Of a stretch of DNA of 64,000 nucleotides, positions 271 to 39,600 are shown piece by piece. The DNA comes from Leucoraja ocellata (Eukaryota), in assembly GCA_036785375.1 (NCBI GenBank), contig JAWMAR010000061.1, positions 8,866,001 to 8,930,000 of the forward strand, given 5' to 3'. Both the position numbers and the translations under genes were made by a program. Within the stretch, counting starts at the first letter, position 1; each line of letters begins with the position of its first letter. The notes under the pieces are model-generated. The model was given only the letters and a program-made list of their open reading frames with translations. It did not search any database and had not been told where the DNA came from.

Positions 271-420
271 ATGAACTGCAGATGCTGATTTAAACCGAAG
301 ATAGACACAAAAAGCTGGAGTAACTCAGCGGGACAGGCAGCTTCGCTGGAGAGATGGAATTTGTGACGTTTCGGGTCGAGACCCTGTCCTGCTGAAATAC
401 TCCAGCTTGTTGTGTCTATT
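271..420. mobile_element. Penelope-tail-derived short repeat (partial inverted pair)
   Basis: gacacaaaaagctggagtaactcagcgggacaggcagc followed by its partial reverse complement; same family as the 3' end of the element at 28780-29310. Confidence 0.7.
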
Positions 421-1017: not shown

Positions 1018-1252
1018 TGTAGGAAGCAACTGCAAATGCTGGTTTACACTGAAGATAGACACAAAATGCTGGAGTAACTCAGCGGGACAGGCAGCATCTC
1101 TGGAGGGAAGGAACGGGTGACTTTTTGAGACCCTTCTTCAGACTGGAGAAGTGTCTCGACCCGAAACGTCACCCGTCTCTTCTCTCACAGATGCTGCCTG
1201 TCCCGCTGAGTTACTCCAGCATTTTGTGTCTTTCTTCAACTGCAGTTGCTTG
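1018..1252. mobile_element. Palindromic Penelope-tail-derived repeat
   Basis: Two ~110-bp inverted arms meeting at cttcttcagactggagaag (~1141). Confidence 0.8.
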
Positions 1253-1261
1253 TTTCAACTG

Positions 1262-1610
1262 GGACGTGGCTTGATTATTTGATAGAGTTGTTGAGAGACG
1301 CTCTCAGGCAACTGAATCATCCCACCATAACCAGAGAGCAATGCTGAACTACTATCTACCGATTTGGTGACGCTCGGAATTTCCTTGAACGGACTTTGCT
1401 GGCTTTACCTTGCACTAAACGCCATTCCCTTATCATATAACTGTACACTGTGGACGGCTCGATTGGAATCACGTATTGTCTTTTTGCTGACTGGTTAAAC
1501 ATAGAAAATAGGTGCAGGAGTAGGCCATTCGGCCCTTCGAGCCAGCACCGCACGCAACAAAAGCTTTTCACTGTACCTCGGTACACGTGACAATAAACGA
1601 AACGAAACTC
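1262..1610 (+). mobile_element. Rex1/Babar-like LINE 3' end with nested CR1 tail (1497-1550)
   Basis: 3' UTR motif caacaaaagcttttcactgtacctcggtacacgtgacaataaa recurs at ~2750 and ~11750; nested aaacatagaaaataggtgcaggagtaggcc is the reverse CR1 tail. Confidence 0.55.
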
Positions 1611-3358: not shown

Positions 3359-3492
3359 GGGCAGCACGGTGTCACACGCGGTAGAGTTGCTGCCTTATCG
3401 CACCAGAGACCCAGGTTCGATCCTGAATGTAAATTGTTCTTAGTGTGTAGGATAGTGCTAGTATAGGGGTGATCGCTGGTCGGCGTGGACTC
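3359..3492 (+). mobile_element. tRNA-derived SINE (HE1/V-SINE-like), internally deleted
   Basis: ggcagcacggtgtcacacgcggtagag (box A-like), ggttcgatcc (box B), then tagtgtgtaggatagtgctagt...ggtcggcgtggactc 3' part. Confidence 0.7.
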
Positions 3493-4320
3493 ACCATGAG
3501 ACATCCAGGCCTCAGCACCAGCTGCAAGAAGCAGCCTGCTGTGCCCATTCCCTCCATAGTGGACAGAGGCACAGCTGTGTGTTGCTCAAGTTCCCAGAGC
3601 CTAGGGAATGGGTGATGAAGATGCAACCTACAGATGCAAGGACCCAGCAACACGATCACTGATGTAACTGCTGCAAGTTATACCCTATGGGCACTATGTC
3701 AGCCTGACCATGGTCCATGGCCATACACCATAGAAGAGAAGCTTGAGGCCATCCAACAACAAAGAGGAGATTTAATTTTAAACAGAGATCTTTTTGAAAG
3801 AGAGGAAGGAATACCACAGCAGGCTGGGCGACTGTGGTGGAGTGTAAGGAATGAGGGGTACAGGTACTAGGCAGAGGCAGGTTGGGGTTGCTACAGTAGG
3901 AGGAAAGATGAAGGGTGTGGATTGCCAGGAGAGTGTTGGAATAGTCTAACTGAAGCTAACCAGTCAGCTGGGTTAGGTCAGGATTGTTGGGTGGTCAACA
4001 GCTCTGGGCAAGTAAACCATGTGTCTCAGGAAGGCTGAACCACACATTGTGTACAAAGTGTGTTACCACAGCTGCTACTTGGGATCAGGACAGAACCAGA
4101 GGGAATCAAGAATCCAGAACCAAAAGCCAGTAGGATTGGAAACTACAACATATGAAACAAGCCAGAAAACACAAGGAAATAATCAAAAGCAACATAACCA
4201 CCACTCAGAAAGCCCCGCAAGTGTTTCAATCCAAAGGAAATGGATGTTGTCATTCTGCAAATCTTGGCCTACCATAGAAAACATTCTGAACTGGAGCAAT
4301 GTCCCACTAAGTCACAAAGT

Positions 4321-4476
4321 TTTATTAACCCTGTTGCAGCATACAACAAACACGGCCAAAATCCCATCACAAGCTGACCACCAGTCCGTTGTCACCAACA
4401 GGAGCAGCACCTCAACAAGGCAACATCTCCGAGGGCTTGCTGGAAATTGGAATCAAGATGATTTCAATATTTTATT
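4321..4476 (-). terminator. Candidate cspg4 polyadenylation signals (AATAAA at 4476..4471 and 4326..4321)
   Basis: First two AATAAA hexamers downstream of the stop on the minus strand; U/GU-rich sequence further downstream. No transcript evidence. Confidence 0.35.
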
Positions 4477-4817
4477 TTAAAGTCAGTTATTTCAATTTTT
4501 GGAATGTGTAACAGGTGAAGTCTGGCAACTACTAAGGTATTGGTTTACCCTTTATCCTCCACGGGATGGTTAGATGCAGCAGAATGCTATCCACTGCAGC
4601 AGATTTTCTTTCAGCTGGGGCTGAACCATCTCTTCTGTGGTGTAATCCTGCTGGTACAGTGGGAACCTTCCTGTCCCGGGTTGATAAGGTGCAGTAACGA
4701 TGTGATGGTGTGTGTTCTGTGACTGGTTTGAAGCACCTTGAGCTGGTAGGATGACAAAGAGACTGGGACCGGGATCATACCTAGTAGTGATTGCTAGCCT
4801 GGCAGACCTGCTTCACC

Positions 4818-6661
4818 TCAGGAATACCGTGGCCACTGTACCTGAGCACCATTCTGAGGCCGGACATTCACCAGAGGCATGGACTGGACATGATCTGTTT
4901 TCCTGAAGGTCTCTTTCTCCACTGCACTATTCCTGGGCTTGGGAGGAGGGGCCTGCACATTGTGCTTTCCCATCTTGTGACGTTTGGTAACGCAGATCAC
5001 AATCACTATTAAAATCAGCAACAGCAAAACCACCAGGATGACAGCAATGATGATGGTGATTAGATTATTGCCTGCAGAAGAGAGAGCTGCCTCATTGACT
5101 GCTGTTGCTTGGAACTCTGTAGATACGCCACCCGATGTAGGATCACTACTTCCAAAGGGGCTCCACGTTACCGCTGGGTAATCCATGTCTCTCTCTCCTC
5201 CATCCTGGGCTGATGGACTGCTGCTGGAATCTGGTGCCTTTGTACTACTCAGGGAGGCGAGGTTGAGCAGTGTGGCATTGTAATGGTGATTGGGTATGTA
5301 TGGCACAGTCTGAAATTCTAAAGCTCCTCTGCCAGGTGGCACTCCATCAGCTTTTAAGAGAAACTGGAAGCTATCCAAGTCTGGAAATAGCCCAGCCTCA
5401 GCGGAATCAAAGACTTCCATGGCAATGCTTCCGTCTTCCAGGTCTGTCTGGGTGAAGTTACTGCCCAGAAGACTTTGTGTGCCATTCTGTCTGTGCACCT
5501 TGATGAGTTTCCCAGCTCTGGGCTGTTGAGTGATGTGGAAGGTGGGAACGCTTTGGGTCTTATTCCCCAGTTCACTTGCATCCAAAACATCCGTGTCGAT
5601 CAAAACGGTGGTACCTTTGGGCCACTGCAGATGTGGGGCCACTCTCACTAGTGGCTGCACTGTGATATTCACCGTGCCTGACATGTTGCCCTTACTGCTC
5701 AGTGCCCAAACCTGGAAGCTGTCCTGGTAAACAGATAAATCCGTCAGCCGGTACTTCACTTCTCCACTGTCAATCTGCTTCTGCAAGAACTCCGTCACCA
5801 CAACCTGGTTCATCGTCACCTGGCCATGCCTTGGCAGCTGAGTTATTCTGTAGAGGGTTTCTCCATTTGCCCCGGTCTCTACCACAAGCTGCTCTCTGGT
5901 TATGGGTGTTGCTGGATCCCCCTGCAGTAGCACAGCCTCTTTGTTGTGGATCACGCTGACAGTGGCTGGCACAACCTCAACAGTGACAGACCCCCTGGCA
6001 GCTGAGTGTGTCCCATCGGAGACTGTGAAGTGGACAGTGCTGGTGGATGGTGGGCCCACTGCTTGGAACAACACAGTGCCAGCATTGACATCCGCCTGTG
6101 TGAACTGTGTTATGGCCGTGTTGCTGTTAGCCAGATGCACAAAGAAGCCATTGTCTGGTCCTGCGACAATTACATACTGGATTTCTTCTGGCGTGTTGTC
6201 TGGGTCTACTGAGCGTATGTGGTCAGGAGACAACACCAAGCGGGAGCCTTGCGGAGCGTGGAGGGCTAGTCCCGTGGTGACAATCCGTGGCGGATACGCT
6301 TTCACCGGCACCACCGTGATGTTAAAACGCTCAGAAATAACGATGACCATTTTGTCATCTCCAGGCCGTGACAGTCGCTTTCTCCTTGGACCCAAGCGAG
6401 CTCGGAAGGTGAAGCTGTCCTCCAGTGCCCCTGACCGGGAGTGTGTGTACTCCAGTGTGGACACCAACAAGTCAGACTGTGTGAAGCGCCGCACCCTCCT
6501 GACACTGGCCAACGACAGAAACCCATGGACAGGCTGAGCGGTCACCTCAAACACCACCTCGTAGCGGGAACGGCCGGGCCTGGGCACTGCGGCCAGAAGG
6601 TTGGAGGCGTCCAGTGCAGACTGGTCAATTGTGGCACTTTGACCTTGAAGCAGAGTAAGGC
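4818..6661 (-). CDS. cspg4: cspg4 exon 10 (last CSPG repeats, S/T-rich stalk, TM helix ~4978-5064, cytoplasmic tail)
   Basis: ctccag|GC acceptor; within the 631-aa ORF; TM LITIIIAVILVVLLLLILIVIVICV followed by KRHK; stop TGA 4820..4818. Confidence 0.95.
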
Positions 6662-9600
6662 CTGGAGAAGAAAGAAAGACATGTTGTTGATTGAGCAGTT
6701 GGAGACAACTCATCTGCCCTGTCCACCATGAGCCGGCTCCACTTCAGGCTTCAGCCATCATGCTGCTGCCATCTGCTCCACTCACTAACCAACATTTGTT
6801 CTGCTCTCTCACACCTGTATCTACAACCTGTTGCTCAAGACCCCTGACCAATTGTGCACAACAACAATCTCAGCAACTCCTCAAAGACTGTGGTGCTCTG
6901 ATTATTCAGCCTATCACTCCAGCAAGTATAGAAGAAGTCAAAACAGAAAGATTGACCACCAGAGAAGGGCTGGAGGAGCTATGCTTCTACACACACCATC
7001 ACTGACCAGAAACATTACTTTGTTGATGTAATTCAGTTTTGAGCTTGGGATTTGCTCTCTTTAAACTGCACGATGTTTACAATAGTCCCATCATTACTGA
7101 CTCACTGGAAATTATTCATTCGCTCCTCCTGACTGTTTTACAAGTCATGTCCTGCAGACTATCATGACATCCAACTGAGTGCAGGAATGGAGAGGGGGTG
7201 AGAGGGGGAAAGGCAATGCATTGTGAGGTTAGGCGTTGAGGTGAAATCGTTCTGATTAATTAAAGTGAACAGAGTGGATGGAGCCAGCTTCTCACTGCTT
7301 CCAGTGCATCACTGATCATCATCCACAATGTGTTTACTGCTCCACAACAACTGTGCTCTCACCATCTTCTGTTTTAATTTCTACATTTACTATGTTTGTT
7401 GCCAAGTGTCAGAGTTTTACTGAACATCAGAATGTGGTGAAAATCCTGTGGTGATGCTTTGTCACCGCCTGTAACCTTGTCCCATCACCGCAGGTCGCAA
7501 GATGACAAGTTGTATGCACTGTCACCAATGCAGCAGCAAGTAACATCAGGGAAATAGGATGAAGGAGATTACTGAGATAGAACGTGAGCAGGTGAACTCC
7601 AGCCTGCTCTGCCATGTCATACAATCATGGCTGCTCTGACACTAACTTCAACTCCACATTCAAGTCACCTCCAGTGGATACACCCCTTGTCTATACAACT
7701 ATTTCTTATAAGACAATCCCTCTATTCCTAGTATTAATCTAGGAAAACATTCTCTGAACTGCTTCCATTGGTTTAAAAACCCTTCAATAAGGAGATTAAT
7801 ATTGTACACAATACCCCAGATGTGATCTCATGGTATAACTGTATAACTGAAGGACAACCTCCTTACTTTTGTATTCAATTCTTTTTGCAATAAATTCGCT
7901 GTTAGCTTTCCTGATCACTTGCAAACTCTATATACCAATCCTTTGTGAATCAGACAGCCGGGACCTCTGCATCTCAGAACTCGGCAAATCACAACGTTTA
8001 GATTTTTCCTTCCAACAGATATTCCCACTTTATATTTGTCACCACATCTTCAGATCATCATGTTAGTTGTAAACATTGTGGTGCTGCCACTGCTCCCTCA
8101 ACACTCCACTCATTACATCTTCCCATCAAACAATGGGACGTATTGGTGCCTCCTCTCCAGATGCCATGAGTCTGCCCGTGCCGATGTGTTGCATCGTTCC
8201 TGATAAGCTTTTATTTTCTGCAATAACCTTTGAAGTAATGTTTTATCAAAGACCATCTGTGAGCATAGCACACCAACTGGTTCTGCTTTATCTGCCTTAT
8301 TCCAGCTGCACTTGGCATTTGGAGATTTTTTAATCATATGAAACTGGAGCCAGGATCAAAAAAATAGAAATGACAAGAAATGAATCGACTGCAACACCTT
8401 TTAGGAGCGATTGCCCTGATTGCTCGGTAACCCAGAGCACTGATTGTCCATGCAAACATCTCCTGAGCATCTCCTGGAGCTGGGGCTGGGGCTGGGGATG
8501 GGGCTGGGGGTGGGGATGGGGATGGGGATGGGGAGGGGGAGGGGGCTGGGGAGGGGAAGTTGGAGGGGGAGGGGGAGGGGGCCTGGGAGGGGGAGGGGGA
8601 GAGCTGTTTGTGCCTACCTTTATTCCTCCAGAGCTGGCTGCCTTGCCCAGGGCCACCATTTTCAAAGGAGATCCAGAGTGTCAGGTTGTGCCTCTGCGTG
8701 ACTGCTGGCAGAGAGGAGACCGTAAACTGGAACGAATCCTGGCTCTTCCACAGGGGCTCCTTGGGCCAATCATGTTGGTAGAAAATGTTGGCAGCCTCCA
8801 GCTATGGGTGAAAGGAGAAGTCATTGTGAACATAGTGGACAAAGGTCACTCTCCTTCACTCTGGAACTCACTGCAGAGGATCACACAGCCTAGCCCAGTA
8901 CCATTACACCACCTATCCACACACACAGGCCTGGATACTACCAACGAGTCTGGATTTGGTGACAGTCCAGAACCCGGTTACTGTTGCTGCCTGGTTCTTG
9001 GTTGCTAGAATTAACCATTCTTTGAAGCCTTGCATCAAAATAACCTTGGTCCTGAAGGTCAAGGAATGTCACAGTATCTTATTGCAAGAGAGAGCTCTGC
9101 GTTGAACATGCTTTGACTTTCTGAAGCCACCATAAAGCTGGCGATCTAAATTGCCCTCAACCAGATTATTCCTAGTTTGAAGAACTTCTCAAGAGGAATC
9201 AGCATTCATGGAAGTTTAAATCTGAGTGCAGACCGTCACGCTAATCTCCACTGGTGGAGGGATGGCTTGGAGATCCTGGGGAGGAGGCTGTGTACACCAA
9301 AGGTTTCTCATACTCACCCCATCTCTGTAACTCCTGCACTGACAGAGGATGATTACAAAACATTTCAGAGCAGTCACAGTCGTACAGCACGGAAACAGGT
9401 GCTTTGGCCCAACTTGCCCATGACGATCAAGTTGCTCCAGCTACACTAGTCACAGCTGATCGCGCTTGGCCCATATCCCTCGAAACCTCTCCTACTCATG
9501 TACCCATTCAAATGTATTTTAAATGCTATTTCAGTACCTGCTTCAACGACCTCCAATGGTAGCTTGTTCCATGATTGACCCACCACCCATTAGGTTCCAA

Positions 9601-12600
9601 TTAAATCTTTTCCCTCTCAACTTAAATCTATGTCCTTAGGTTGTTGATTCACTATCCTGGGAAAAAGACAATGCATTCACTCTATCTATTCCCCTCATGA
9701 TTTTACACAGTGCCCACTAAGTCTTTAAATGATTGGTCAAACAGACACAAGTGCAGGAGCGTTAACTGAGATTTTTGACTCTTATGCATTACCCTGCAGC
9801 TGTTCTGTGAGAGGTGGCTTAGCATAGACATTTTATCATCTAGGACTTGGACAGTTAAAGGAACCTTGAAGAGAATTGCTCAGTGAGCAGTGTGTGAATG
9901 AGTTTCACAATAATCTGACAGATCAGGTAATGGTGCTCATTTATTTCCCTCTGGTTGGAGATATAACAATGCAGTCTACAATTTGGCATTATCTTCACTC
10001 TGGATATTAATTACATTTTTCCATCATGAAGTATGAGCAATGTGATTTCTGAACCTCATTCATCTCCCCTGACACTGGAGAGTTACACATCAGCAATAAC
10101 CCATTAAACTAGAACGCCAATCTTCACATTACAAGTGAATTTATTTGATATCTTCCTTGTCTTGTTTTCCCCTGCACTCTGCTGAAGGTCCCATCAGCCA
10201 TCCGTTCACTGCTGTGCCAAGTAGTTTTTCCTCAGGGACCAGTCTCTGCAGAACAGCAAGGGAGACCATTCTGACATTCATTTCTGCTCTCCATTTGTCC
10301 GACTCCCTCACTCTTCCCAGAGCCTTGAAAACCCTTCAAGCATATCCACAATTTTCATTTGAAACTTATGGCTGAATCTGTAGGCTGGATTTGTCTGTGT
10401 CATTTCCCTCTGATTGGAGATATATAAATGCAGCCTACAGTCTGGTATTATCTTCACTCTGGATATTAATTACATTCTTCCATCATGAAGTATGAGCAAT
10501 GTGATTTCGGAAGCTCATTCATCTCCCCTGACACATCACCAGCCACCCATTTGTAGCCACTGGCTCATTCAACTCAGGCATGGTGAATGTGGATGGCTCC
10601 AATGCAGGTCCCATTGAATGATCTCAGCTGCTTTAGTCTATCCACGGAGCCCTCGTCCCCCCATTCCAGTAAATCTCCTCTGCACCTTCTCCGAGGCCCT
10701 CACATCCTGCTTGAAACATGGGCCCCAGATTGAACACAGTACTTCAACTGGGGTCAAACCTTGTTCATTTTACAATTCCACGATGAGTCTAACATTCTTG
10801 TGTTTGAAATCAATGCCCTAGTTTATTACGCCCAGCTTCCTGTGTCAACTTTTAACATTTAATATTGCCTCCCACTAACTTCCCCACATTAAATAACACA
10901 TGGCCCATGTCCACACTCACCAGTATTATGTGGTGTGTGATTGCCCTCACTATTTATTTTGTGACCTATACAAAGTTTGTACTCATGCCCTATCAAGTTT
11001 AGTTTATGACAGTACTATACATCAAAATGACAGTACTTTCAATATCAATTCCAGGGGAACAATATATCTCTCAGGTACAAATCAACAATGCTTGCCACTA
11101 TTCTCTCTGCTTTCTATCCCCTATCTAATACTGTATCCAGTCTCTGCAATCCCATGAGCTTCACCCATGCTGATGTTTTGTTGCTCCTTATCCCATGCAT
11201 ATTGAAATACCACATGTACAACATTAACCACACTACCCTTATCAATCTACTCCTTGAGACAAAGAACACAAGTTAATTAAATATGGTTTAGGCAGCCATG
11301 TTCTATAGCTATTTTCCAAGTAACGATGAACTTTGCCTGAGTGTTGATCTTTTACCCATCACAGGGCATCTGTTGTTTTCTGTTTAACTTGTTCCCATTT
11401 TGCACACAGGGAGTAACATTAGCAGCACCCCTAATTCCATGGAGCTCTGGGCAACTGGAGTGAAGTCTGTGTAATCTCAACCCACCACAAGATTGGATGC
11501 TTCCAAAGGCAACTGGAAAAAGATGTGTTCTGATGAAGGATTATTTTCCTGAAACATTGACTTTGTTTCTCTCTTCTGGGACAGTTTCTTCACAGCTGTC
11601 ATTGGGCAACTGAACCATCCTCACAGCAGCTGAAGTGCAGCCCTGACTCCCCATCTATTTCATTGGAGACTTCTTGCACTCTATGCTGTACCCTTGACCC
11701 TTTATCTGTGGGTGCACTGTGGATGGCTATAGTCTCTTGACTGGATAGCACAACAAAAGTTTTTCACTGTACTTTGGTACATGTGGCAATAATAAACTAA
11801 ACTAAACACAAAGGCTGTCCAACCTGCTATTGGCAGCATTTTATATATTTTAGTTTGGAATGACAGCATTTGCAATTTCAGTTTGATATTTCCCACCTAG
11901 ACTGGATGATTTGCCCCGAGCCAATGTTGAACATGTCATTACCGTCCATACTCTGATCATTCCTGCACCACATTCCCCTCCCCTGTGGCATTGGCAGTGA
12001 CAGTGAGCAGAACGGCATCACTGCTCAGCTTGTGCCTGTCCACACCCACAGTCACGCCGCCCAAAGACTCTGTGATTGCACCGACTTGGTGCTCAAAGCT
12101 CAGCTCCCAGCTGGAAATCTCCCCAGCACCCTTCTCCAAGGAATCAATGCAGAGTGAAATTAAACTCACGTCTTCTTCAGTGAAGCTGGAAACGATCCTG
12201 GTCACATTCCCTGTGTCAACTGTGATCAGTTGCCCCAAAGCAGGAGGAGTCACAACTGTGTATAGGATTGGTCTGCTATTTGCTCTGCTGTCATCATTGG
12301 TTCTTGCCTTGAGGTGCCGGGTTGTGATCGGCTGGCGTGTCCCTGGTGGGTGGGTGAAATGAAAGGAAGAGTGACCATTTATGTCAGCTCCATCTCCACT
12401 CCGTGCCATGTCTGAGCCATTCACTGTGTCTGCACTCCCCAAACCACTCACACCATTCACTGTGTCTGTGCTCCCCAAACCACTCACACCATTCACTGTG
12501 TCTACACTCCCCAAACCACTCACACCATTCACTGTGTCTGCACTCCCCAAGCAACTCACACCATTCACTGTGTCTACACTCCCCAAGCCACTCACACACC

Positions 12601-15600
12601 ATACACTGTGTCTGCACTCCACAAGCCACTCACACCATTCACTGTGTCTGCGCTCCACAAGCCACTCACACCATTCACTGTGTCTGCACTCCACAAGCCA
12701 CTCACACCATTCACTGTGTCTGCACTCCACAAGCCACTCACACCATTCACTGTGTCTGCACTCCCCAAGCCACTCACACCATTCACTGTGTCTGCACTCC
12801 ACAAGCCACTCACACCATTCACTGTGTCTGCACTCCCCAAGCCACTCACACCATTCACTGTGTCTGCACTCCCCAAGCCACTCACACCATTCACTGTGTC
12901 TGCACTCCCCAAACCACTCACACCATTCACTCTGTCTGCGCTCCACAAGCTACTCACACCATTCACTCTGTCTGCGCTCCCCAAGCCACTCACACCATTC
13001 ACTGTGTCTGCACTCCCCAAGCCACTCACACCATTCACTCTGTCTGCACTGCCCAAGCCACTCACACCATTCACTCTGTCTGCACTCCCCAAGCCACTCA
13101 CACACCATTCACTGTGTCTGCACTCCCCAAGCCACTCACACCATACACTCTGTCTGCGCTCCACAAGCTACTCACACACCACACACCGATTCCCACCCCA
13201 CCATGCCACACATCTCAGTGTGGTGCTGAACACTGAGCCACACAACTAGAGTCTCACGCCTCGCTTCCCTCCGGGTTCTGGAGCAGCGGAGTGTGGGCGA
13301 GAGACCCCGAGTCCTGAGTCTGATGCAACCCACACCAACCTAGTCCTTACCTGGATAAATAACAAGAGGCTCCTCGGTTTTGATCTGAATATTGAGGGAT
13401 CTGGCCCTGACTTTGAAGATGTGGCTGGGTGTGTGGTTAATCCCATCAGACACCTGAAAGTGGAACCCTCCAGACGATGTTGACCCTGTGAGACACGGGG
13501 GGGAGGGGGGGGGGGGGGGGGGGGGGAGGGGGAAGCAATTTAGAATTAGAATATGCTATTTACTTGCACAAGTTTCCTGTTTCAATGTCCACTTGTGGTA
13601 CCACATAGTCATAAAGTCATAGAGCTGTACAGCACGGAAACAGGCCCTTCAGCCCACCTTGTGCATGGCGTCCGGGTTGGCATACTAGCAGAGTCCAATT
13701 TGGCTGCATTTGGCCCATATCTCTGTATACCCTTCCTATCCAGATATCTGTTCCAACACCAGCGAGACCAGCCAGCCTATCACAACCCTTAATTGTATAC
13801 ACTTTGATAGTTTCCTCTGGCAGTTCATTCCAAATACAAACTACCATCTATGTAAAAAGTCCCTCTTAAATCTCTCCCCTCTCACCTAGAGGGTCTGAGC
13901 TACATGGAGCGGTTGATTAGACTGGGTCTATATTCCTTGGAGTGCAGGAGGGTGAGGGGAGATCTTATAGAGGTGTATAAAATCATGAGAGGAATAGATC
14001 GGGTAGATGCACAGAATCTCTTGCCCAGAGAAGGAGAATCGAGGTTCAAGGTGAAGGGGAAAAGAGTTAATTGGAATCTGAGGGTAACATTTTCACACAA
14101 AGGGTGGTGGGTGTATGGAACAAGCTGCCAGAGCAGTTAGTTGAGGTGGGATTATCCCAACGTTTAAGAAACAGTTAGACGGGGTACATGGATAGGACAG
14201 GTTTGGAGGGATATGGACAAACAGGGATATGGACAGGTGGGACTAGTGTAGCTGGGACATGTTGACCGGTGTGGGCAAGTTGGACCAAAGTCATGTATCA
14301 CTCTATGACTCTATGACTAGGTCACTGTCTCAAAATAAGTTTAACTATTCAGGATAGAAATTTCTCATCCCAGATGGTGGTGAATGTGATTCTCAACCCA
14401 AGATCTTTGTCTGAAGTAGAGCTTGATCCAAAAATATCAAATCTGGAAATTAAGTTATTATTTATTAATATTAACAGGACAGTTAATAATGTTTCTTCGT
14501 CCATATTGACAAGAATCCAGGAAAAGGCAATGTAAAGAAGATACCTTGTATCATCTCAGTCTGGAGAAGGGTCTGGATTCGAAACGTCACCCATTCCTTC
14601 TCTCCAGAGATGTTGCCTGTCCCACTGAGTTACTCCAGCATTTTGTGTCTATCTTTGGTTTAAACCAGGATCTGCAGTTCCTTCCTACACTTTGTATCCT
14701 AACCTGATTTGACACTCTGCTTGCCAACCCTCCCTGCCCAGCACCCCTCTCTGTGCCATCACTGCCAGCCTTAGGGATGGGGGTAGACAGTTGTGGCCTT
14801 ACCGTGGTGCACGAAGATGACCTGCCCGGCATTGATCGCAGCCTGGCTAAACTGCAGGATGCTGCCATCCAGCGATGACTTCAGTGCCACGTGTCCATTG
14901 GATGGAGGACTGACAGAATACACCAGCTCATCCGCAGGGCTATCGAGGTCCTGAGTGTACAGCAAATCCCGGGAAATCTCAGCCTCGCTGCTTTCCCACA
15001 TCTAGGAACAGGAGCAGAAGACAGTTAAATTATTTAACCCCAGCCCCTCAACCCCCAGTCTAGACATCAACACCACAGTCATCTTGCTCCCGGCTTGTTT
15101 AATTACCCCACTACAGCCGGCTGTACCATCTGCCCTAATGCTGATGTGTGTCTTAGTATCCAGCCCTGGGAACAGGCCGGGGATCAGAGCCTCCTGTGTT
15201 GCACAGCTGCTCAGGATCAACCTCAGCCAAGACTCATCCAGACCTTCTTAGCAAAAGCACGTGGATGACTATCATACTCTTATCCCTTCCACGAGGATGT
15301 CAGATAATGAGAGAAGAGGAGTGAAATGTAAAGCTTAAGCAATGGATGTGGGTGGACAGAGGCAGGTGGGGAAAGAGCAGGGGGGAAATGAAAATGGGGG
15401 GTTTTGGGATGGAGGTGAATGTACAAAGAAAGGGAAAGGAGCAGCGACTGGGGAGATAATGAGGGAGATGCGTTGGGACCAGGGTGGTCTGGACTGGTAT
15501 CGGAATGCGTGAGGAGGTGGGGGATTACTTGAAATTGGAGAATTCAATGTTCACACCGTTGGGTTATAAGCTAACAAAGTGGAATATGAAGTGATTTTCC

Positions 15601-18600: not shown

Positions 18601-21600
18601 CTGCTGGTCACTCCCCCTCTCCCCTGCTGGTCACAGCTCTCCCTCTGCTGGTCACAGCTCTGCCCCCTGCTGGTCACAGCTCTGCCCCCTGCTGGTCACA
18701 GCTCTGCCCCCTGCTGGTCACAGCTCTGCCCCCTGCTGGTCACAGCTCTGCCCCCTGCTGGTCACAGCTCTCCCTCTGCTGGTCACAGCTCTGCCCCCTG
18801 CTGGTCACAGCTCTGCCCCCTGCTGGTCACAGCTCTGCCCCCTGCTGGTCACAGCTCTGCCCCCTGCTAGTCACAGCTCTGCCCCCTGCTGGTCACAGCT
18901 CTGTCCCTGTTGTTCCTGGGAGTAGCTAAGATGGGGCAACATCGGCATGGACATGTTAGGCCAGAGGGCCTATTTCCATGCTGTATAACTCAACACTGTA
19001 AGAGGAGCAGGAGTCCAAACCTGCAGTTTAATAGCTGTGGCTGATCCCATCTGCTCCCTGTGCCAGTTCCCCATTGCTCCCTGTGCCAGTTCCCCATTGC
19101 TCCCTGTGTCCCATCTGCTCCCTGTGTCCCATCTGCTCCCTGTGCCAGTTCCCCATCTGCTCCCTGTGTCCCATCTGCTCCCTGTGCCAGTTCCCCATCT
19201 GCTCCCTGTGTCCCATCTGCTCCCTGTGCCAGTTCCCCATTGCTCCCTGTGTCCCATCTGCTCCCTGTGCCCCATCTGCTCCCTGTGCCCCATCTGCTCC
19301 CTGTGCCCCATCTGCTCCCTGTGCCCCATCTGCTCCCTGTGCCCCATCTGCTCCCTGTGCCCCATCTGCTCCCTGTGCCCCATCTGCTCCCTGTGCCAGT
19401 TCCCCATCTGCTCCCTGTGCCCCATCTGCTCCCTGTGCCAGTTCCCCATCTGCTCCCTGTGCCCCATCTGCTCCCTGTGCCAGTTCCCCATCTGCTCCCT
19501 GTGCCAGTTCCCCATCTGCTCCATGTGCCAGTTCCCCATCTGCTCCCTGTGCCAGTTCCCCATCTACTCCCTGTGCCAGTTCCCCATCTGCTCCCTGTGC
19601 CAGTTCCCCATCTGCTCCCTGTGCCAGTTCCCCATCTGCTCCCTGTGCCAGTTCCCCATCTGCTCCATGTGCCAGTTCCCCATCTGCTCCCTGTGCCAGT
19701 TCCCCATTGCTCCCAATTCCATAATCATTCACAAATTACTATGCAGCCTCTTCCAGCTCACAGTTATCGTTGTCAATACTGTCCCCTGGTGGCCATCTCA
19801 AACACTGGCACTCTGCAACTACAACTATACTTGTTACTTCCTGTAAATTGCTTTTGCTAGTTTAATAAGCCCAAAGTTTGCAATAAATCTTACAAGCTCA
19901 TGGTTTTGAACTGGGCAATGAACTTGTACACACATTCATGTTTCTTCAGATAGAATTATCAAAATGAATGGACAGACTTTTTTGTCTCACTCGTAGATAC
20001 AAAGTGCTGGAGTAACTCAGCGTGACAGGCAGCATCTCATGAGAGAAGAAATTATGACGTTTCGGGTCAAGACCCATCTTCACCAGTCAGGTGGAAGTTT
20101 ACAGAATTACAGAGTAGTTGCAGCCTCAAGAATCTATAACTTGCAAAGGAAGGATAGATCATTTTTCAGCTGTGCCATCACACCCAACTGCGGGATGAGG
20201 AATGGGTGGCGTTTTGAGTCGAGACCCTTCTTCAGACTAAGGAAGGGTCTTGACCCGAAATATCATCCATTCCTTCTCTCCAGGGATGCTGCCTGTTCCG
20301 CTGAGTTACTCCAGCATTTTGTGTCTATCTTTGATTTAATCCAGCATCTGCAGTTCTTACGCACACACATCTGGATGAGGGACTGGTCGGCCTGTCTGGG
20401 CCTTCCTAGCCCCATATTGCAGTCTGCCAGCCCCTTCCCCTCAGCCTCTGCCCGCAGATCCATCGCACACAGCTACCCTCTGAATGTGGTCACTGGTCTG
20501 CCACCTCTGCTGCCCCAGCCATCCCACATCCCGAGAGGATTTCCTTCCTATCACTGTCAGTGATCATCACCTTCATTCCCCATCCCCAGTCTCCTGCCCA
20601 CTCTTTCTACCTCCACTACATATATTCTTTGAGATTCTAAATCCCTCTATCAGATACCCTTGCCCCTAACTCTACTCCAAGAACAAACCCTCAACCTCTA
20701 CAGTCTCATTGCAAATATAAACTCCTCGTTCTGGAACGAATGTGGTAAATCTTTGTGCTCTCTCTGAAAAGCTGACATATTTTCTGAAGTGGACACAGCA
20801 CTGCACTGGTGGCCCAGCCAGTGTGTGAGCGAGCAAGTGACAGGGATGGAGTAACTGGCCGAGGAAAATAAAGTTTAATATCTTTTAAATAACATTGCCC
20901 TTTAACTAATTGTCACAATGTCCACTAACAGAGTTGAAAATCATCCATCTCTTCCTGCTAAACGTGAGGATGTGTCAGGTTTCCAGCAGAGTTTTTGATG
21001 AATTTGTTTGCACACCCAGACAGCAGCATCACTGTGTGAGCAGAGATCATGTTAATAATGCACTTACCTTCAGTCCGGTATTAATGGTGACAACAGGACG
21101 TTGGTCGTTCACTGGGATCACTGTTACATACACTGCCATTGGTTCACTCAGTCTGCCAATCTCTGAGGCATTTACAATTACAGTGAAGTTGTCCATCAAT
21201 GTTTCACTGTCGTCATGAAAATAAAACACTGCACCTTCTGTGACCTGAAAATAAGCAGGAAACAAGCATTCAAGAGGGGATTGTGAAAACAGTAAGCAAA
21301 TGTTCAACAGATACTACAAAACTAATAGTACTAGAATCACTCAGGTATCAAGGTCAAGCAACATCTGTGGACAATGAAATAGTGACGTTGCAGGTTTGAG
21401 ATCCTTCATCAGAATCTAGTTAATTTTCAGTAGCAGAGACGGTGGAGGAGGGCTGGGTAGAACAAAGGGAATATGTCTGATGGGGTGAGACCTGAGAGGT
21501 TAATGTGGCTGGAGACAGACCTGTCGGAACTCAACAGGTCAGGCAGCATCAGTCTGAAGAGGCACTTTGTGTTTTGGTTGAGTTAATGTAGTGGTTAGAA

Positions 21601-24600
21601 CACGGTTCGGCCTCTTTGCCTGTGTTACGTGTTGCTAATAGCAGGGCTGTGGGGCATGCCCAGCAACCACACTATACTAACAGAGGGAAAATCTGACCCA
21701 AAATGATGACAGGCAGGAATGGCCAGTTCTGAAAGAGACAGAAAGAAAGAAGCAGTTACCTGGATTTGGAGAATTTGATCTTGAATCAGACGTCTGCAGT
21801 GTGTGCTCAGATGGAAAATTAGGTGCTGTCCGTCAAGTTTATTTTGGGCTTTGTTGGGCTTGAGGTCACAGAGTTAGATCAGAGTGGGAGCGAGATAGGT
21901 AATTGAAGTGTCAGGCAACTGGAAACTGAGGGTGTTGTTAGAACATTACTCAGATCATCAACACAAATAGAAAAGAAATATCTGCATCGACATTATGCGT
22001 TCCCAAAACAGAAAAGGCACTGGCGAGTCCACCAGGACCACATTTGAGGACATCCTCATCCATTGGAACCTTACCTCCTTCATGGTGAATGATGAAAGAC
22101 TGTCTTCAGGAAATTGTTGGTTTGCGATCCTGCCGTGCTCCGGGCCCTTCAGAATGTAACATTTGAAATTCAAGGAATTGGCGTAGTTGGAAATGTTGAG
22201 GTCGTCTTCACTGAGGGCCCGTGCATCTCCTTCTCTCACTGAGATGTTCTGGGTTTCCAAAGAAATTCTATCAGGAATGATATCTACCACAACTGTGAGT
22301 CCATCCACTGACTTAAATCCATTGGACAGGTCCAGTATGAAAGCATCAGCCTGAGGGCTGAATCGAAGGTTAACATACTGAACATTGCCTGCATTTATGT
22401 CTTCCTGGGAAAATGACCTGAGGGGTTTCCGCCATGCACTTGACCCACTGTCAGAGCTCATTGCCAATTGCCCATAGACAGGAGGCACTCTCACAGAGTA
22501 GATCAAATCCGATGGAAGACTGTCATCATGAGAGACCTGTCGAAGCAATCACAACACACAGACTTGTTAACATTTATGATTGCTTAATAATTCACTGAGC
22601 AACAGGCAACCTTGTTCAGCTGATCACACAACTGTACAACTTTACACATCCCAAACACCCCATCTCACAACTCTTCTAAATAATACATTTTTGTTTCAGC
22701 GTGAGAGAAATATCCCACCAGAGTTCATATTGGCTTCCAACAAACCGTCTTATGGGGCTTAAAAGCCATGGTCATATAGTCATAGAGCTGCACAGTACAG
22801 AAACAGGACCTTTGAGCCATCTTGTCCCACTGGGCTCGTCCATTTACCTGCATTTATCCCATGGTCTTCAAAACCCTTCCAGAGGAAGCTACAGAAGGGG
22901 AAACAAAACCAACAGACATTTGGACATATGATATGGTTTTTAAACCTACCATCCATTAGCCCCATTCAGCATCTCCTGTCTGAGCTGTGGAATAGCCTGC
23001 CAATCCTCACTGGCCTGATCTGGAGTGGAGGGAACTCATCCTCAATATGTAGGGAGTGTCTAAGAGAATTATTTTTTTGCTTGGATCTCATTGGATCAGC
23101 TTGGCTTCCAGCTAATTTACAAATCTCCCCTTCACAGCGTGGAGTGAGTGACTTCACACATGGCTATCTGCTGAGATTCAAAAGTCATAAGGTCACAAGT
23201 GATAGGAGCAGATTTAGGCCATTTGGCCCATCAAGTCTACTCCACCATTCAATCATGGCTGATCTATCTCTCCCTCCTAACCCCATTCTCCTGCCTTCTC
23301 CCCATAATCTCTGACACCCGTACTAATCAAGAATCTATCCACCTCTGCCTTAAAAATATCCATTGACTTGACCTCCACAGCCTTCTGTGGCAATGAATTC
23401 CACAGATTCATCACCATCTGACTGAATACTTACTCCTAATCTTCCTAAAAGAACATCCTTTAATTCTGAGGCCATGGCCTATGGTCCTAGACTTTCCCAC
23501 TGGTGGAAACATCCTCTCCACATTCACTCTACCCAGGCTTTTCACTATTCGGTAAGTTTCAATAAGGTACCCCCTCATCCTTCTAAACTCCAGCGAGTAC
23601 AGGCCCAGTGCCATCAAACGCTCATCATATATTAACCCACTCATTCCTGGGAGCATAACTCAGATCGGAGGCAGGAAGAGTGAACCTTGGCGAAAGAGCA
23701 CACTTTAATCGCTGGTTGGAACTAACTGTGTGGAAAATGCAGCTCGGGAATCATTATAAGCAGTTCAATCTTGAAGTAACTTGAAACTCACGTGATGGAC
23801 TGGGGCCCAGAGCACATTCTTCCATCTGTTTCTCCTGAGTACCACTTTAATAGAAGCTGCAGCCCCAGCTAACGCAGCTGTCGAACCACTGCACTGTACA
23901 ATATCAAACATTACTGCTTCTATATCTGAACACTAATGTCACCCCTCAGGAATTCACTCATGGGACCTCCTACTTAAAAAAAGTTATAGAGTACTTGATC
24001 AACAAACACTCTGCTGCCTCTTCCAGTATCTCAGTCTCCCCCGCTCCCAAATACCACATTCTGTCTGAAGCTATTCTCAGTATTGCCTCCCTCACCTCTC
24101 TGGAGACAATGTTTTATGTGGTCTCCACACAGTGTAGACATTGAATCCAAACTGTTTGCCCGTCTTTCCTCTGTTGTCACAGTCCCTGTGCTGAATCCAG
24201 ATGCCTGCTCCAGCATTTATCCCCCTCATACCTTTCCGTCTCAGAGCAGCCGAGTAAAGGCCCCACATTCAGAAACACAGTTACTGAGGTAACAAGGGAT
24301 CTGCTCTCTGACAAGACCAGCGTTGACCTAATTCACTTCGAATCACCATAAGATTTAACACCAGTGACTGATAGCAATCGATCTCTATTAATTATTCTAT
24401 AACTGGTCTACACTTTACCAAAGGAAATTACCGTGACCCAAAGGTTTGGAAACATTAATCCAAAGTCAACCATTCCTTTCAGCTGGTTAAACCCCTCTCA
24501 AACTTCTCAAGTACAGCATTCTGAAATATGACTTTCCTAAAGATACCTATTTAAGTTGATGGAATCAGCGCTGTCTGCTTCCACTATTCACCAGGAATGC

Positions 24601-33600: not shown

Positions 33601-36600
33601 GTAATAACTAACAATTTATTATAAATATGATCCCTGTCTACAATAGCAGCACTCACTAACAATAAACTGAGTGGCTCAGCCCAGGGCTTGCGATCTATAA
33701 TAGCTACATTTTCCCAAATGTACATGGAGCTATTTATTTCATGCTCATTAGTTGTAGGAGCAAAATTTTAGGCCATTCGGCCCATCTAGTCTACTCTGCC
33801 ATTTAATCATGGCTGATTTATCTTTCCCTCTCAATCCCATTCTCCTGCCTTCTCCCCATAACCCTTAACTGCTGCAATAATCAAGAATTCATCAATCTCC
33901 ATCTTAAAAATATCCATTGACTTGGTCTCCACAGCCTTCAGTGCCACTGAATTCCACAGACTCACCACCCTCTGACTAAATAAATTGCTCATCTCCTTTC
34001 TAAAGGTAATTGCAATTTGTTATTTTTAACATAAATGTTAGAATCTGATTGAAAAAGATCAAAATAACATGTTAGAGGCTCCACTCCAACCTTCCCATTG
34101 GACCTTAACTTCATGTAAATTGGTCCAGTTATGAGAACACAAGGTAATGAATGAAGTAACACACAGCTAGATTGGAGATTGGACTTACGAGAAGTTGTTC
34201 ATTCAGAATGCTCTTCGTTCCTCCTTGGTTTACAAATATTTTCTTATTGTGGACCACGACTGGAGAGTGCTGGTGACTTTCCATAAAGATCAAAATGGGA
34301 AAAGTTCCCTCTGCTTTAATCTCTTCCACTTCAACTATAAAATTAAAGGAATCCCTTAAATGTCTGCTGTTGTCGTGGTAATAATTTACTTGGCCAGTGT
34401 TTATATCTTTCTGTGAGAAAGTCAAATTTGGTTCACCGTTCACGAGAATCTTTCCATGTTTAGGGGGATCTGTTACTTGATATTTTATTTCCGCTTCACT
34501 CCAAATGTCCATATTAGTCTCCACATTAAGAAAATAGCCATGGATATTTGACTCTTGTCCCTGCTGAATCAAAAATATGGAGTTATTGACTATTTCCAAG
34601 TAAGGTTCCAATGCATGAACTTCCAGTACAGCTTCAGTTTGATGAACACCATCAGAGACTTGTAGCCGGAAATTTCCTTGGTGCGCACCATGATGTTTAA
34701 ATAACACAAGCTTCTTTTCCATGTCGTCCTGACTGAAGCGGGAGAGTTCATGGGCAGTGTCATCTGCGGAGACAATATTACCATTGGAGATCCCCCACCT
34801 GGTGTAAATCAATTGGGAATCATCAAAATCTGAATCTGCATCATGAAAACAAAGTTCTGCTGTGGTTAGTAAGTGTTGTCCATGCAGGGTCACGTTAAAA
34901 GTCTTATTCACCACTCGTACAGGTGGCTGATCATTTATTGGTGTTATATAGATTTTCAATGTACCATGAATCACATTTGCCTCGGGTCCAGCATCTTCAA
35001 ACTGTTCCACAACAACAAAACTAATCTTGTCTTCCAGTGTTTCAGTGTCATCGTGCTCATACATCAACCGCTCTTGGAGAATATCATCATTGGTAAAGAT
35101 TGTGACAGGTTCCTTGGTGCTGGGCTGTGTGATCAGTTTTCCATGCTGAGGACCGTGGGTAATGTTATACACAAAAGCAGTGGTACTCTGGCCCACGGTG
35201 AGAAGTTGATCCTTAGTTATGGTTTGTGTACCTCCTTCCACCACAACCAATGCCCTACTCATCAAAATGGGCACATCAGGATCAATGCCAATTAATATTG
35301 GATAAGTATATATGGGAGAGTGCTGGTCTCCAACAAAGACCTGAAACTGGAAATTATCTTGGGTTTCTTCAGTGTTTCTGATAGTGGCCACATAAGTGAG
35401 CCCTTCTTGCTTTAAATCCTCCTGAGTAAAGCTGGACCCGGCTCTTAGTACCTCATCCACCACCATTAACTTTCCTTTATCAGGCGACTTTAGAATCACA
35501 TACCTGAACAGGTTAGCAGGAATTGAAAGTCCTTCTATTGCAGCCTCAAGTTCATTGTGTGTAATCTTTCCTCGTCTTACATTATTCAACTCATTCGGAG
35601 ATATTCTGAGCAGTGTTATTTTGGCGCTCTTTATTTTTATTAAAAATGCATTCTTTTCAAGAACTTGCTTTCCAATTGTCACTGAAAACATAAGTTTCTC
35701 AGTAATGTTTTCTGTACGAAACTCTGGATCTGTGCTGACGTATCGAATGCGACCCTGTTCTAGATCATGCTGATGGAATGCCCTTGCTGCTTTCCATTCC
35801 CCAGTAATATCCGGTTTCTGGACCTCACCATAACGTAATGGCTCAGTAATGTTATACAAGACATCCACCTTCTGCTTGAATGCTTTTGTCTCCACGGACA
35901 GATTGCTGATGGTGATCAGACTCATACCTCCTTGTGGGAGAATTAAACCAGTGTTCTTACCCATTTTTACTTCAGGTTTCAGGGCCACAATTCTCAAGGG
36001 AGTTACATCACTTACTCTTTCTCCGTCATTGACCTGAAGCAACAATTGGGACAATTTCGCCCCATTGTGAACATAGCGTACATTTCCTGCTTTAAGATTC
36101 TGACATGAAAATTCTCTAATTCTCTGATTGGGATTTCTTACATCTTCAACATAGCCTTGATCTTCGCTATTAACTACAATGATCTTTAATTCAGCACAAA
36201 CATTGTCGGCATCTATGGGTAGAATGACATCTGGACTAAGGGTTTTCCTGGTATTTTGAAGAATCATCATAAGATTCCCATTTGGGAAGATTAGTTCTGG
36301 CGCATCATCGACTGGGACGATGTTTACATTTAAAATATACCGTTGACCCTGCTTTAAACAATGAGGGATCTTTTGCTTGCTATGAATGGATACTTCAAAG
36401 ATTATCTGATCAAGTAACTCTTCAGATCCGTCATGATAATATTTAATATGGTGACTGATCACGTCCAACAAAGTAAATGCTCTTCTACTTTTTGCACCTG
36501 GGATATTTAGTTCCAAATGTCCGTGTCTACCATCCTGAGTTATCTTGAAAACTACCTGGGAATTTCTTATTCCAATTCTGTGCAGATCAATTGTGGGGTT

Positions 36601-39600
36601 GATGTGTTTCAGCTCCAAGGTGGAACTTCCTGCTTCCTTTACAGCTAATTGTGTCAGATCTAATAGTCTTGTAAAATTATTGAATATTTGCGACATGTTT
36701 TTTGTGATCAAACATGGTGGGTTGTTCATTAGAATGCCCCTAAAACTTTGCATGGGTACAGGTGAAACCTCACGTTCTAGCCCGTTTTCACCTTCTTCCA
36801 TCCCCTGGCTCTCTTGGTCATTGCATTCAGTGCCAATAGCCCTAGTGACTAATGCATTGGACAAGCTTATTTGATCTGAGTTTATTTGTATATTCTGAAT
36901 ACAACCGATGAATGAGCCAGATATTGTTCTTTCTGCCAACACATAGGTGGGACCATGTTTAATTAATTCAGAAGATGTTTTGTTGTTTATTCCACCAATG
37001 AAGAGATGCCCTTGGAGACCCAGATATGCCTTCTTATTGTTAATTAGTTGCTTCTGAGATAATTTATCATCTACTGTAATTTGTACATAATTTATATTGA
37101 AAACCAGGTGAACACTGTGCCATTTTCCATCACTAACAAAATGAGTATTGTCCAGTACAATAATTCCATTTCCATCATCAATTAAGACACGAAGATGACC
37201 ATCTGCAATTTCTAAGGCAATAAAATTTGTCTGCCATCCCGCATGGTAAAGTAGAGGAGCCTGCAAAACCAGCGTCTTCAGAGAACACTCAAACCTTCTT
37301 TCTTCTTTTGTAGACCAGCTTGGAAAGGAAATAAAGGATCTTGGACCTAGAAAGTTAGCAGGATAATTGTGCCCTGCTGTGATTACATTGCTACATCCAT
37401 GGTCTATGTTATGCTCAGGATAGGCGAGGAATGAGGATAAGATGTTACGATCATTAAACTCTGCCCTGGAAATACAACCTCTGAACATGGTGGATGTCCT
37501 TGATGCATCAGGGATCTTTGCCTCTCCAGGTCCACCCAAATACAAGCCAGAATTAACTTGCAGTTTATTAAAATAGTCAGGCACTTCTACAGCAGTGGTG
37601 AAGTGTCCATCGATACTCAAGGTTAAAGCCCTGTTCTCATGAACAAGATGAACATCATGCCAGGCAAGATTGTGAAGTTTCAGACCTGTCCGAGAAATCA
37701 AAACCACTTCTTTAGATCCAAGTTGAAATTTCACCTGAAAAACAAAAAAAGTCCTGAATTACTTTTAATGGAAATTGGTAGCAATGTGAATGCTCTGTTC
37801 CACCAGAGTGTGTATCCCCTGAAGTTACAGTTGTGCAGTGGAGTGGACAGAAGCTACAGGGAGTCACCAGCACACGGAATGGATAGTTCAAGAGAGAGAG
37901 TTCCAAATATGAGTGGTTAGTGTTGGTCGGAAAAACAGAGACGGGCCTAAAATGAAAGAAATGGTTAAGGATTGGTGAAATCCCATTAGTTCAAGTGTAC
38001 TGATGTTCAAGTGACTACACATGGGCCTCCACTAAGCCAGTTATTTTGCACTGAGTATCTCAGTTTCAGTAGCATTTGTTCAATACACATACAATAAAAT
38101 GTTGATAATCTGCTATCTGGCCATTTGGAAATCTGGATGGTTTGAATTCTGGCTCTTTGGGTAATGTCTGCCACACTCCCTTCCACCCACTGGCTTCCAC
38201 GTTCCCTTCCACTCTCCAGGGCCCCAAACGCCCCTGCTCCCTTCCCCTGTGTGTGGTCCTGACTCCCATTCAACATACTGAAGCCTCCTTTCCCATGTTC
38301 CCTCTAAATGTACTCTGGAAAATTGATCATAATAGCATGTAACATCTAAATAAAAGTACATTTTTAAATGTTTAGGTAGACAAAAATGCTGGAGAAATTC
38401 AGCAGGTGAGGCAGCATCTATGGAGTGAAGGAAATAGGCAACGTTTCGGGCTGAAACCCTTCTTCAGACTGATGTGAGGGTGGTGGGGATGGGGGGGAGG
38501 GGGGTGGCGGGAAGAAGAAAGGAAGGGGAGGAGCCAGTGGGCTGAGGGAGAGCTGAGGAGAAAGTAAAGACTACAGGAAATTAGAGAAGTCAATGTTCAT
38601 ACCGCTGGGGTGCAAACTGCCCAAGCGAAATATGAGGTGCTGCCCCTCCAATTTATGGTGGTCCTCACTCTGGCCATGGAGGCTGAGGACAGAAAGGTCG
38701 GATTTGGAATGGGGAGTTGAAGTGCTGAGCCACCGGGAGATCAGGTTGGTTATTGTGAACCAAGCGGAGGTGTTCGGCGAAGCGATTGTCAAGCCTACGC
38801 TTGGTCTCACCGATGTAGAGCAGCTGACATTGAGAGCAGCGGATGCTATAGATGAGGTTAGAGGAGGTGCAGGTGAACCTCTGCCACACCTGGAAAGACT
38901 GCTTGGGTTCTTGAATGGAGTCAAGGGGGGAGGTAAAGCGACAAGTGTAGCATTTCTTGCGGTTGCAAGGGAAAGTGCCTGGAGAGGGGGTGGTTCGGGT
39001 GGGAAGGGACAAATTGACCAGGGAGTTATGGAGAGAGCGGTCTCTGCGGAAAGCAGACAGGGAAGGAGATGGGAAGATGTGGCAAGTGGTGGGATCACGT
39101 TGGAGGTGGCGAAAATGAAGGAGGATTATTTGTTGTAAGTGACGGCTGGTAGGGTGGAAGGTGAGGACAAGGGGGACTCTGCCCTTGTTACGAGTAGGGG
39201 GATGGGGAGTGAGAGTAGAGTCACGGGGTATATAAGAGACCCTGGTGCAAGCCTCATCTGTGGTGGAGGAGGGGAACCCCCGTTCCCTGAAGAATGAGGA
39301 CATCTCCGATGCCCTGGTGTGGAACGCCTCATCCTGGGTGCAGATGCGGCGAAGACAGAGGAATTGGGAGTAGGGGATGGAGTCCTTACAGGAAACAGGG
39401 TGGGAAGAAGTGTAGTCCAGATAGCCATGGGAGTCAGTGGGTTTATAGTGGATGTCGGTCAGGAGTTCATCACCTGCGATGGAGATAGTGAGATCAAGAA
39501 ATGGTAGGGAGATGTCGGAAATTGTCCAGGTGTATTTGAGTGCCGGATGAAAGTTAGTGGTGAAATGGATGAATTCAGTGAGTTGTGTGTGGGTGCAGGA

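Follow-up and report, generated by a model that had tools for sequence, protein, structure and literature searches.

The window, a stretch of 64,000 nucleotides from Leucoraja ocellata at G000:C61:8,866,001-8,930,000, contains a whole orthologue of CSPG4/NG2 on its minus strand. The gene runs from 62397 to 4818 in ten exons, which join to a coding sequence of 6978 nt with 2325 codons and one stop. The introns have AG/GT borders throughout and the gene span is 57.6 kb. The initial annotation had counted about 2300 open codons upstream of the tail, and the gene structure agrees with this. The exons and the membrane-associated parts are as follows.

62304..62397, minus strand: cspg4 coding exon 1, with the start codon and a predicted signal peptide; matches residues 1-31 of P0058
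42490..42653, minus strand: cspg4 exon 2
34189..37734, minus strand: cspg4 exon 3 of 3546 nt, which encodes laminin G domains together with cadherin-like repeats of the CSPG type
22075..22536, minus strand: cspg4 exon 4
21068..21244, minus strand: cspg4 exon 5
14803..15001, minus strand: cspg4 exon 6
13351..13485, minus strand: cspg4 exon 7
12170..12342, minus strand: cspg4 exon 8
8618..8801, minus strand: cspg4 exon 9, found spliced to exon 10 in the X20 contig
4818..6661, minus strand: cspg4 exon 10, coding part, covering the final CSPG repeats, the stalk, the membrane anchor, the cytoplasmic tail and the new stop
4989..5063, minus strand: predicted transmembrane helix, a 25-residue hydrophobic run read from the sequence by eye that aligns with orthologues
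4821..4985, minus strand: cytoplasmic tail, 55 residues (78 in Rhinoraja)

Pfam domains (PF02210 twice and PF16184) were identified in exons 3, 4 and 10. Of the 2325 residues of the encoded protein, 27 differ from Leucoraja erinacea CSPG4 and 59 from Amblyraja radiata CSPG4. A quick IQ-TREE search over 26 rows of the last-exon region, rooted at the midpoint, placed the window protein in the CSPG4 clade as (Rhinoraja,(Amblyraja,(window,Leucoraja))), grouped with bony-vertebrate CSPG4, and placed the second gene of the genome in the CSPG4B clade. The split between CSPG4 and CSPG4B has an SH-aLRT of 100 in this sample, whose 25 selected proteins comprise 15 members of the CSPG4 list, nine of the CSPG4B list and the C75 copy of CSPG4B.

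A two-exon SNX33 gene (C61:8,851,453-8,860,460; 94% to Amblyraja SNX33) is positioned tail to tail with cspg4 at a distance of about 10 kb, and the CSPG4 and SNX33 entries of Amblyraja, Rhinoraja, Pristis and Amia lie on contigs of equal size. From its domains, tree position, SNX33 neighbour and single predicted membrane anchor, the window gene is assigned by sequence to CSPG4/NG2 as an orthologue by descent. It resembles the RefSeq orthologues of Leucoraja (XP_055518824.1), Amblyraja (XP_032870976.1) and Rhinoraja (XP_078285949.1) in the laminin G domains, the cadherin-like repeats, the one anchor, the SNX33 adjacency and the placement in the tree. When compared to non-rajid orthologues, the rajid protein lacks the YWV end, has a tail of 55 rather than 78 residues, and carries Met at the PKC site.

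The window protein also differs from mammalian CSPG4 in lacking the T-P ERK site and a Ser-Gly at the aligned position, both of which are missing in all of the cartilaginous fishes aligned. The mammalian Ser-Gly (residue 997 of P0038, corresponding to residues ~985-1000 in exon 3 of the window), which we take to be the chondroitin sulfate attachment site, had no counterpart in 10/10 cartilaginous-fish rows. Two other Ser-Gly pairs are present within residues 640-1600. The cartilaginous-fish CSPG4 proteins in this alignment may not be proteoglycans at the mammalian Ser-Gly site.

Some minor features accompany the two genes. Intronic frames at 38557-39663, 28745-29077 and 59024-59554 resemble decayed pieces of retrotransposon reverse transcriptase or endonuclease, and long intronic tandem-repeat arrays (12358-13249, 18333-19860, 27721-28665 and 31483-33624) produce spurious open frames, the longest with 713 codons. 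Below the window, the assembly shows a frameshift of 1 nt close to the end of SNX33 exon 2 (G000:C61 ~8,860,340; L005 ~638-645). The SNX33 proteins of Amblyraja, Leucoraja, Rhinoraja and Pristis have the normal frame at this site, and the shift probably reflects either an error of the assembly or an allele private to the individual.

The cytoplasmic tail and its former end show the following features.

4971..4973, minus strand: Met at the PKC-alpha site (rat NG2 Thr2256), common to rajids and Rhinoraja
4835..4839, minus strand: lesion 1, junction of a net 8-nt frameshifting deletion, its size taken from protein alignment
4818..4835, minus strand: W-P-R-Y-S-stop, the C-terminus newly formed in the shifted frame
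4775..4837, minus strand: fossil tail, the +1-frame remnant of the ancestral tail up to its former TGA (4777..4775), most of which is now 3' UTR
4789..4792, minus strand: lesion 2, junction of an 18-nt in-frame deletion of six codons present in Rhinoraja
4781..4783, minus strand: lesion 3, a TAG where the H-Y-W-V motif has its Trp codon, present likewise in runs X1, X2 and X4

The main frame of the minus strand ends NGAQVQWPRYS with a TGA at 4820..4818. From 4837, the +1 frame reads SGHGIPEVKQVCQASNHY followed by a stop, Val, and a second stop (TAG at 4783..4781 and TGA at 4777..4775). The frames and coordinates given in the initial annotation were exact on re-reading. The tail of Rhinoraja longicauda, a softnose skate of the Arhynchobatidae, ends NGHGNPEVKQVCQASNPKVKTNHYWV. 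The fossil tail aligned to it with a score of 77 and 14 identities in the first 16 residues; the best of 10,349 downstream 21-codon control windows scored 34. Against the mammalian tail (P0038), the score of 31 was equalled or exceeded by 150 of the 10,349 control windows and is not above background. Since the mammalian tail does no better than controls, the identity of the fossil rests on the close outgroup Rhinoraja. The earlier proposal that the +1 peptide is the decayed ancestral tail thus stands when judged by Rhinoraja, but not by the mammalian tail to which it had been compared.

Counted from the Asn-Gly anchor, 12/12 intact elasmobranch tails are 34 residues long, or 105 nt with the stop. 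The corresponding length in the window is 79 nt, which equals 105 - 8 - 18. From protein alignment rather than outgroup DNA, 26 nt were lost in all, 8 nt near 4839..4835 and 18 nt near 4790, and the last ~28 residues were exchanged for WPRYS. A frameshift and a TAG at the Trp codon had been proposed as the lesions; both are present, but the proposal was incomplete, as it missed the 18-nt deletion. As read from the sequence, either the frameshift or the TAG would abolish the motif by itself and the 18-nt deletion would not. The three lesions do not imply three selected events because, after the first null lesion, the others were free to drift. As a guess, the 8-nt deletion may have arisen by slippage between short repeats: the lost codons, with common codon choices, would hold a second copy of the five-base word that remains at the first junction.

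The altered end is not confined to the window. P0058 and P0059, the RefSeq proteins of Leucoraja and Amblyraja (both Rajidae), and two Logan proteins end QWPRYS, and the WPRYS is identical in all four rajid proteins (P0001, P0058, P0059, P0060) and in runs X1, X2 and X4. Seven runs from five organisms (A to E) cover the tail with one contig each at a divergence of up to ~4%. Both deletions are common to all of them, and no indel relative to the window was present at 4770-4860 in 7/7. The TAG is unchanged in X1, X2 and X4, for which all differences were listed, and probably in X11, where it was judged from a listing of 40 of 151 differences. An assembly or sequencing error behind the lesions was considered, since the same contig seems to carry an indel error nearby (the SNX33 shift, missing in Amblyraja and Leucoraja) and the window itself may derive from the sample of X1 or X2. 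The other organisms are not its source, however, and the lesions are common to two independent RefSeq proteins and to the runs of five organisms. Independent genomes rule out an assembly error as the source, and the chance of an artefact is negligible. The original argument that one sequencing error does not account for the tail is therefore upheld.

At 6663 the X20 contig departs from the genomic sequence and passes into exon 9; in the other direction it runs unspliced through the tail past 4300. The entire 2325-residue product of P0001 is encoded on a contig of 8844 nt, and with a gene span of 57.6 kb this contig must be spliced. By these contigs, the gene is spliced and appears to be expressed in this truncated-tail form; none of the listed runs that carry it is on record as RNA. 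The X20 contig extends ~1450 nt past 4300, and the 3' UTR may be near 2 kb. AATAAA words occur past the stop at 4476, 4326 and 3035 on the minus strand, the first of which is altered in X11, X14 and X20.

It might be argued that a PDZ end is still produced by some other means: a splice that joins a donor-like GT within the tail to an exon further downstream, readthrough of the stop, a frameshift by the ribosome, or another CSPG4 copy that is intact. Donor-like GT dinucleotides are present at 4841 and 4780, and assembled contigs drop rare isoforms, so a minor isoform is conceivable. Yet no splice joint was observed within the tail in the seven covering runs, and X20 and X4 continue straight into the 3' UTR. 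No YWV-stop was found in any frame of the gene strand, either in the window from 1 to 4900 or in the 5.7 kb down to SNX33, which leaves no downstream YWV exon on that strand. Downstream WV-stop (two bare) and FWV (two internal) matches all lack a tail-like context, and a ribosomal shift would meet the TAG ahead of W-V. Two genome searches, with match counts that are lower bounds, returned no second intact CSPG4 copy: one gave three matches among 75 candidates, namely the gene itself and two CSPG4B copies, and the other, made with the Rhinoraja tail, gave one match among 15 candidates, the cspg4 locus. Such an alternative source is very improbable. Two checks had been proposed, for an in-frame YWV end over 4770-4860 and for a second cspg4 with intact YWV, and both came out in favor of the loss; the QYWV that does occur in the genome belongs to the paralogue CSPG4B.

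The C-terminal motif is otherwise nearly invariant. Among 57 CSPG4 proteins (55 search matches, P0058 and P0059, with two CSPG4B-like proteins moved out and three fragments omitted), 48 end QYWV, six HYWV and three PRYS. All three PRYS proteins are rajid, and a YWV end is present in the remaining 54, Rhinoraja and 53 other non-rajid orthologues. For CSPG4B-like proteins, 121 of 122 end QYWV and one QFWV, among the matches listed (120 of 311) and the two moved from the CSPG4 set. With CSPG4B counted on the same listed matches (120 of 311), the end motif is retained in 176/179 vertebrate CSPG4 and CSPG4B proteins. Drosophila Perdido has a C-terminal PDZ-binding sequence too (PMC4095857). A comparison of the exon 10 tail across skates, rays and sharks had been suggested; carried out on proteins, it located the lesions in rajids and found Rhinoraja, the one non-rajid skate sampled, intact. 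The lesion appears to have arisen once, after the split of Rajidae and Arhynchobatidae. The RefSeq models carry the end uncommented, and no paper on an altered skate CSPG4 end was found in a search that covered few of the subscription journals.

The end motif of mouse NG2 binds GRIP1, syntenin, MUPP1 and HtrA2. Hydrophobic residues are required at positions 0 and -1, and it is the W-V at these positions that is tied to HtrA2 binding (PMC4560422). Deletion of QYWV abolishes the binding of Stonin1 (PMC4600748). The rajid R-Y-S end has neither the QYWV/HYWV sequence nor hydrophobic residues at both 0 and -1. As a Y-S end is unfit for the 0/-1 requirement, PDZ binding is likely lost and, by analogy with the mouse mutagenesis, rajid CSPG4 likely no longer docks on PDZ scaffolds. 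In the initial annotation the gene was described as a retained CSPG4 without PDZ coupling. The constraint on the gene, its splicing and the missing canonical end support this description, with the loss of binding itself carried over from mouse mutants.

In rat NG2, PKC-alpha phosphorylates Thr2256 and ERK phosphorylates Thr2314, which is followed by Pro (PMC2064431). The two sites were placed on the otter protein P0038 by the 58-residue spacing between Thr2256 and Thr2314. The PKC position is Thr in 52/57 proteins (47 by pattern and five by reading) and Met in 5/57: three rajid proteins, Rhinoraja and Pseudorca crassidens (P0039), in which the change is apparently independent. Since Met is found in rajids and Rhinoraja, the PKC threonine was lost before the PDZ motif. 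The initial annotation had overlooked this change, as it had the paralogue CSPG4B with its QYWV end. The ERK position is out of frame in the window. A T-P at the Thr2314 equivalent is present in only two of 54 intact orthologues (lizard and otter) and in 0/13 intact cartilaginous-fish tails, with Ala-Ser in Rhinoraja. The claim that the skate gene had lost an ERK T-P site therefore fails, and the ERK switch in its T-P form is not ancestral to jawed vertebrates.

Outside of the tail, the gene shows the marks of constraint. Compared with run X11 over 4821-5826, the window has 13 replacement and 14 silent differences over 737 and 233 sites (omega 0.29, binomial p = 0.0016), a value that covers ~1 kb including the fast stalk and assumes that the listed differences (40 of 151) are complete for X11 up to 5826, as the totals suggest. 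The comparison with run X4 gave five replacement and six silent differences (omega 0.27, p = 0.03). By these estimates the gene outside the lost tail is still under purifying selection with an omega of about 0.3. Relative-rate tests gave no speed-up over Rhinoraja, with 79 vs 73 and 60 vs 74 lineage-specific changes, and 55 vs 59 and 56 vs 57 for the CSPG4B control. The rate of CSPG4 exceeds that of CSPG4B among rajids and over the older split alike, in an unchanged ratio (Fisher p = 0.57). An acceleration of rate after the motif loss was rejected, as neither the relative-rate tests nor the ratio gave a sign of it. A generally fast rate in skates was discarded also: skates have 229 vs 113 changes against Pristis but are not faster than Hypanus or Narcine, which points to a slow Pristis. 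The membrane-proximal tail is identical at 49/49 positions in Leucoraja, 47/49 in Amblyraja and 42/49 in Rhinoraja, and a rajid excess of changes in this part (5 vs 1) was not significant (p = 0.10).

These data bear on the possibility that the tail lesions are the first sign of whole-gene decay. The idea draws on three lesions in ~60 nt, a PKC site that is gone as well, and a Leucoraja-Amblyraja difference of 2.91% for CSPG4 compared to 1.85% for CSPG4B. However, the higher rate of CSPG4 relative to CSPG4B predates the loss, and the ratio is unaltered. There are ten canonical exons and 2325 open codons, the protein has the same length in two other genera, spliced contigs exist and omega is 0.29. 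None of a disabled frame, gene-wide neutral evolution or a lack of spliced RNA, by which a pseudogene would be recognized, was found for cspg4. An early pseudogene is accordingly a poor candidate with a low probability.

The paralogue CSPG4B has the same architecture as the window CSPG4 and is 36% identical to it where the last exons match. It forms a separate, fully supported clade and keeps QYWV, as seen at the ends of both copies on C75 and C758 and of the Leucoraja and Amblyraja orthologues. Its neighbour is a different two-exon sorting nexin, presumably SNX18, with a lower score against SNX33. All 54 non-rajid CSPG4 orthologues keep YWV, many of them in lineages that also have CSPG4B; the presence of CSPG4B thus does not normally free the motif.

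Taken together, rajid CSPG4 is an intact, spliced gene in which an inherited 8-base deletion put WPRYS in place of the last ~28 residues, leaving what is likely still a membrane-anchored adhesion and matrix receptor without PDZ docking, and it is probable that this loss was tolerated. Constraint on the distal tail would have weakened in skates with signalling sites already going, as suggested by the PKC Thr to Met change in common with Rhinoraja. One null lesion in the last exon would then have been fixed in the rajid ancestor. A stop in the last exon normally spares an mRNA from nonsense-mediated decay, and the cspg4 mRNA would have escaped for this reason. The later lesions would represent neutral drift of a dead tail. 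The receptor would have been kept for its ectodomain and proximal-tail roles, with CSPG4B possibly supplying a PDZ-linked role. Mammalian NG2 binds collagen VI, growth factors and integrins (PMC4859157). NG2-null mice are viable with mild phenotypes (PMC10662293), which makes a partial loss plausible. Against a tolerated loss, the conserved membrane-proximal part indicates that the cytoplasmic tail is not wholly relaxed, and the retention of YWV in other lineages with CSPG4B also speaks against cover by the paralogue. The identity of WPRYS in four rajid proteins could be explained by selection too, though five codons hold little information. On the whole, the loss appears to have been tolerated rather than selected.

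Alternatively, the frameshift may have been favoured, either by uncoupling CSPG4 from PDZ scaffolds and endocytic adaptors or by making a new signal. The R-Y-S end fits the CUL4-TRPC4AP pattern and could hasten removal of the receptor or of a cleaved tail; a degron with Arg at -3 has been described (PMC7458402), and R-Y-S-stop does place Arg at -3 of the free C-terminus. The constancy of WPRYS across the rajid proteins and runs agrees with selection, as does the fixation of the loss of an otherwise invariant motif while the gene stayed constrained. Chance, however, supplies Arg at -3 in 23/255 off-frame stops of the same CDS, or about 9%. Selection cannot be shown from five codons at 1-4% divergence, the earlier PKC-site loss fits gradual relaxation, and the rest of the protein has no rate shift. 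A favoured frameshift is therefore considered unlikely. Its bolder form, that rajids rewired NG2 by swapping a PDZ motif that dates back to the divergence of insects and vertebrates for a degradation signal or a scaffold-free decoy with labour divided with CSPG4B, is a shade less likely again. If true, the rewiring would alter how glial precursors, pericytes or cartilage cells use NG2.

With respect to known parallels, the tolerated loss resembles the cell-culture constructs that lack the terminal motif, in which the anchor and proximal tail are also kept. Unlike those constructs, the rajid form is a fixed natural allele in which ~24 upstream residues are also replaced and a new end is gained. 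Small C-terminal changes, frame shifts included, can rewire PDZ links without gene gain or loss (PMC3276551). The cases there are gains of a motif (PBK, EXOC4) and CSPG4 is unmentioned in the main text; rajid CSPG4 is a loss, and of a motif held in common with Drosophila Perdido. Loss of the motif by a last-exon frameshift is an ordinary process, which in this case has cleanly removed a very old motif in nature. The hardnose-skate group lives without the NG2 end motif while the remainder of the gene stays selected. The little skate, a laboratory species, thus offers a natural tail-deletion allele with a close intact outgroup in Rhinoraja, by which PDZ-dependent functions of NG2 may be separated from those of the ectodomain only.

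As a minor observation, the two CSPG4B copies of the assembly (G000:C75:3,368,000-3,373,500 and C758:177,400-182,900; L007 and L008) are 98.2% identical over 5.5 kb, and each lies beside the same sorting nexin. A further nexin occurs twice, on C556 and on C183. The duplicates of CSPG4B and of the nexins likely mean that the assembly retains both haplotypes, and its size of 3.44 Gb may be inflated as a result.
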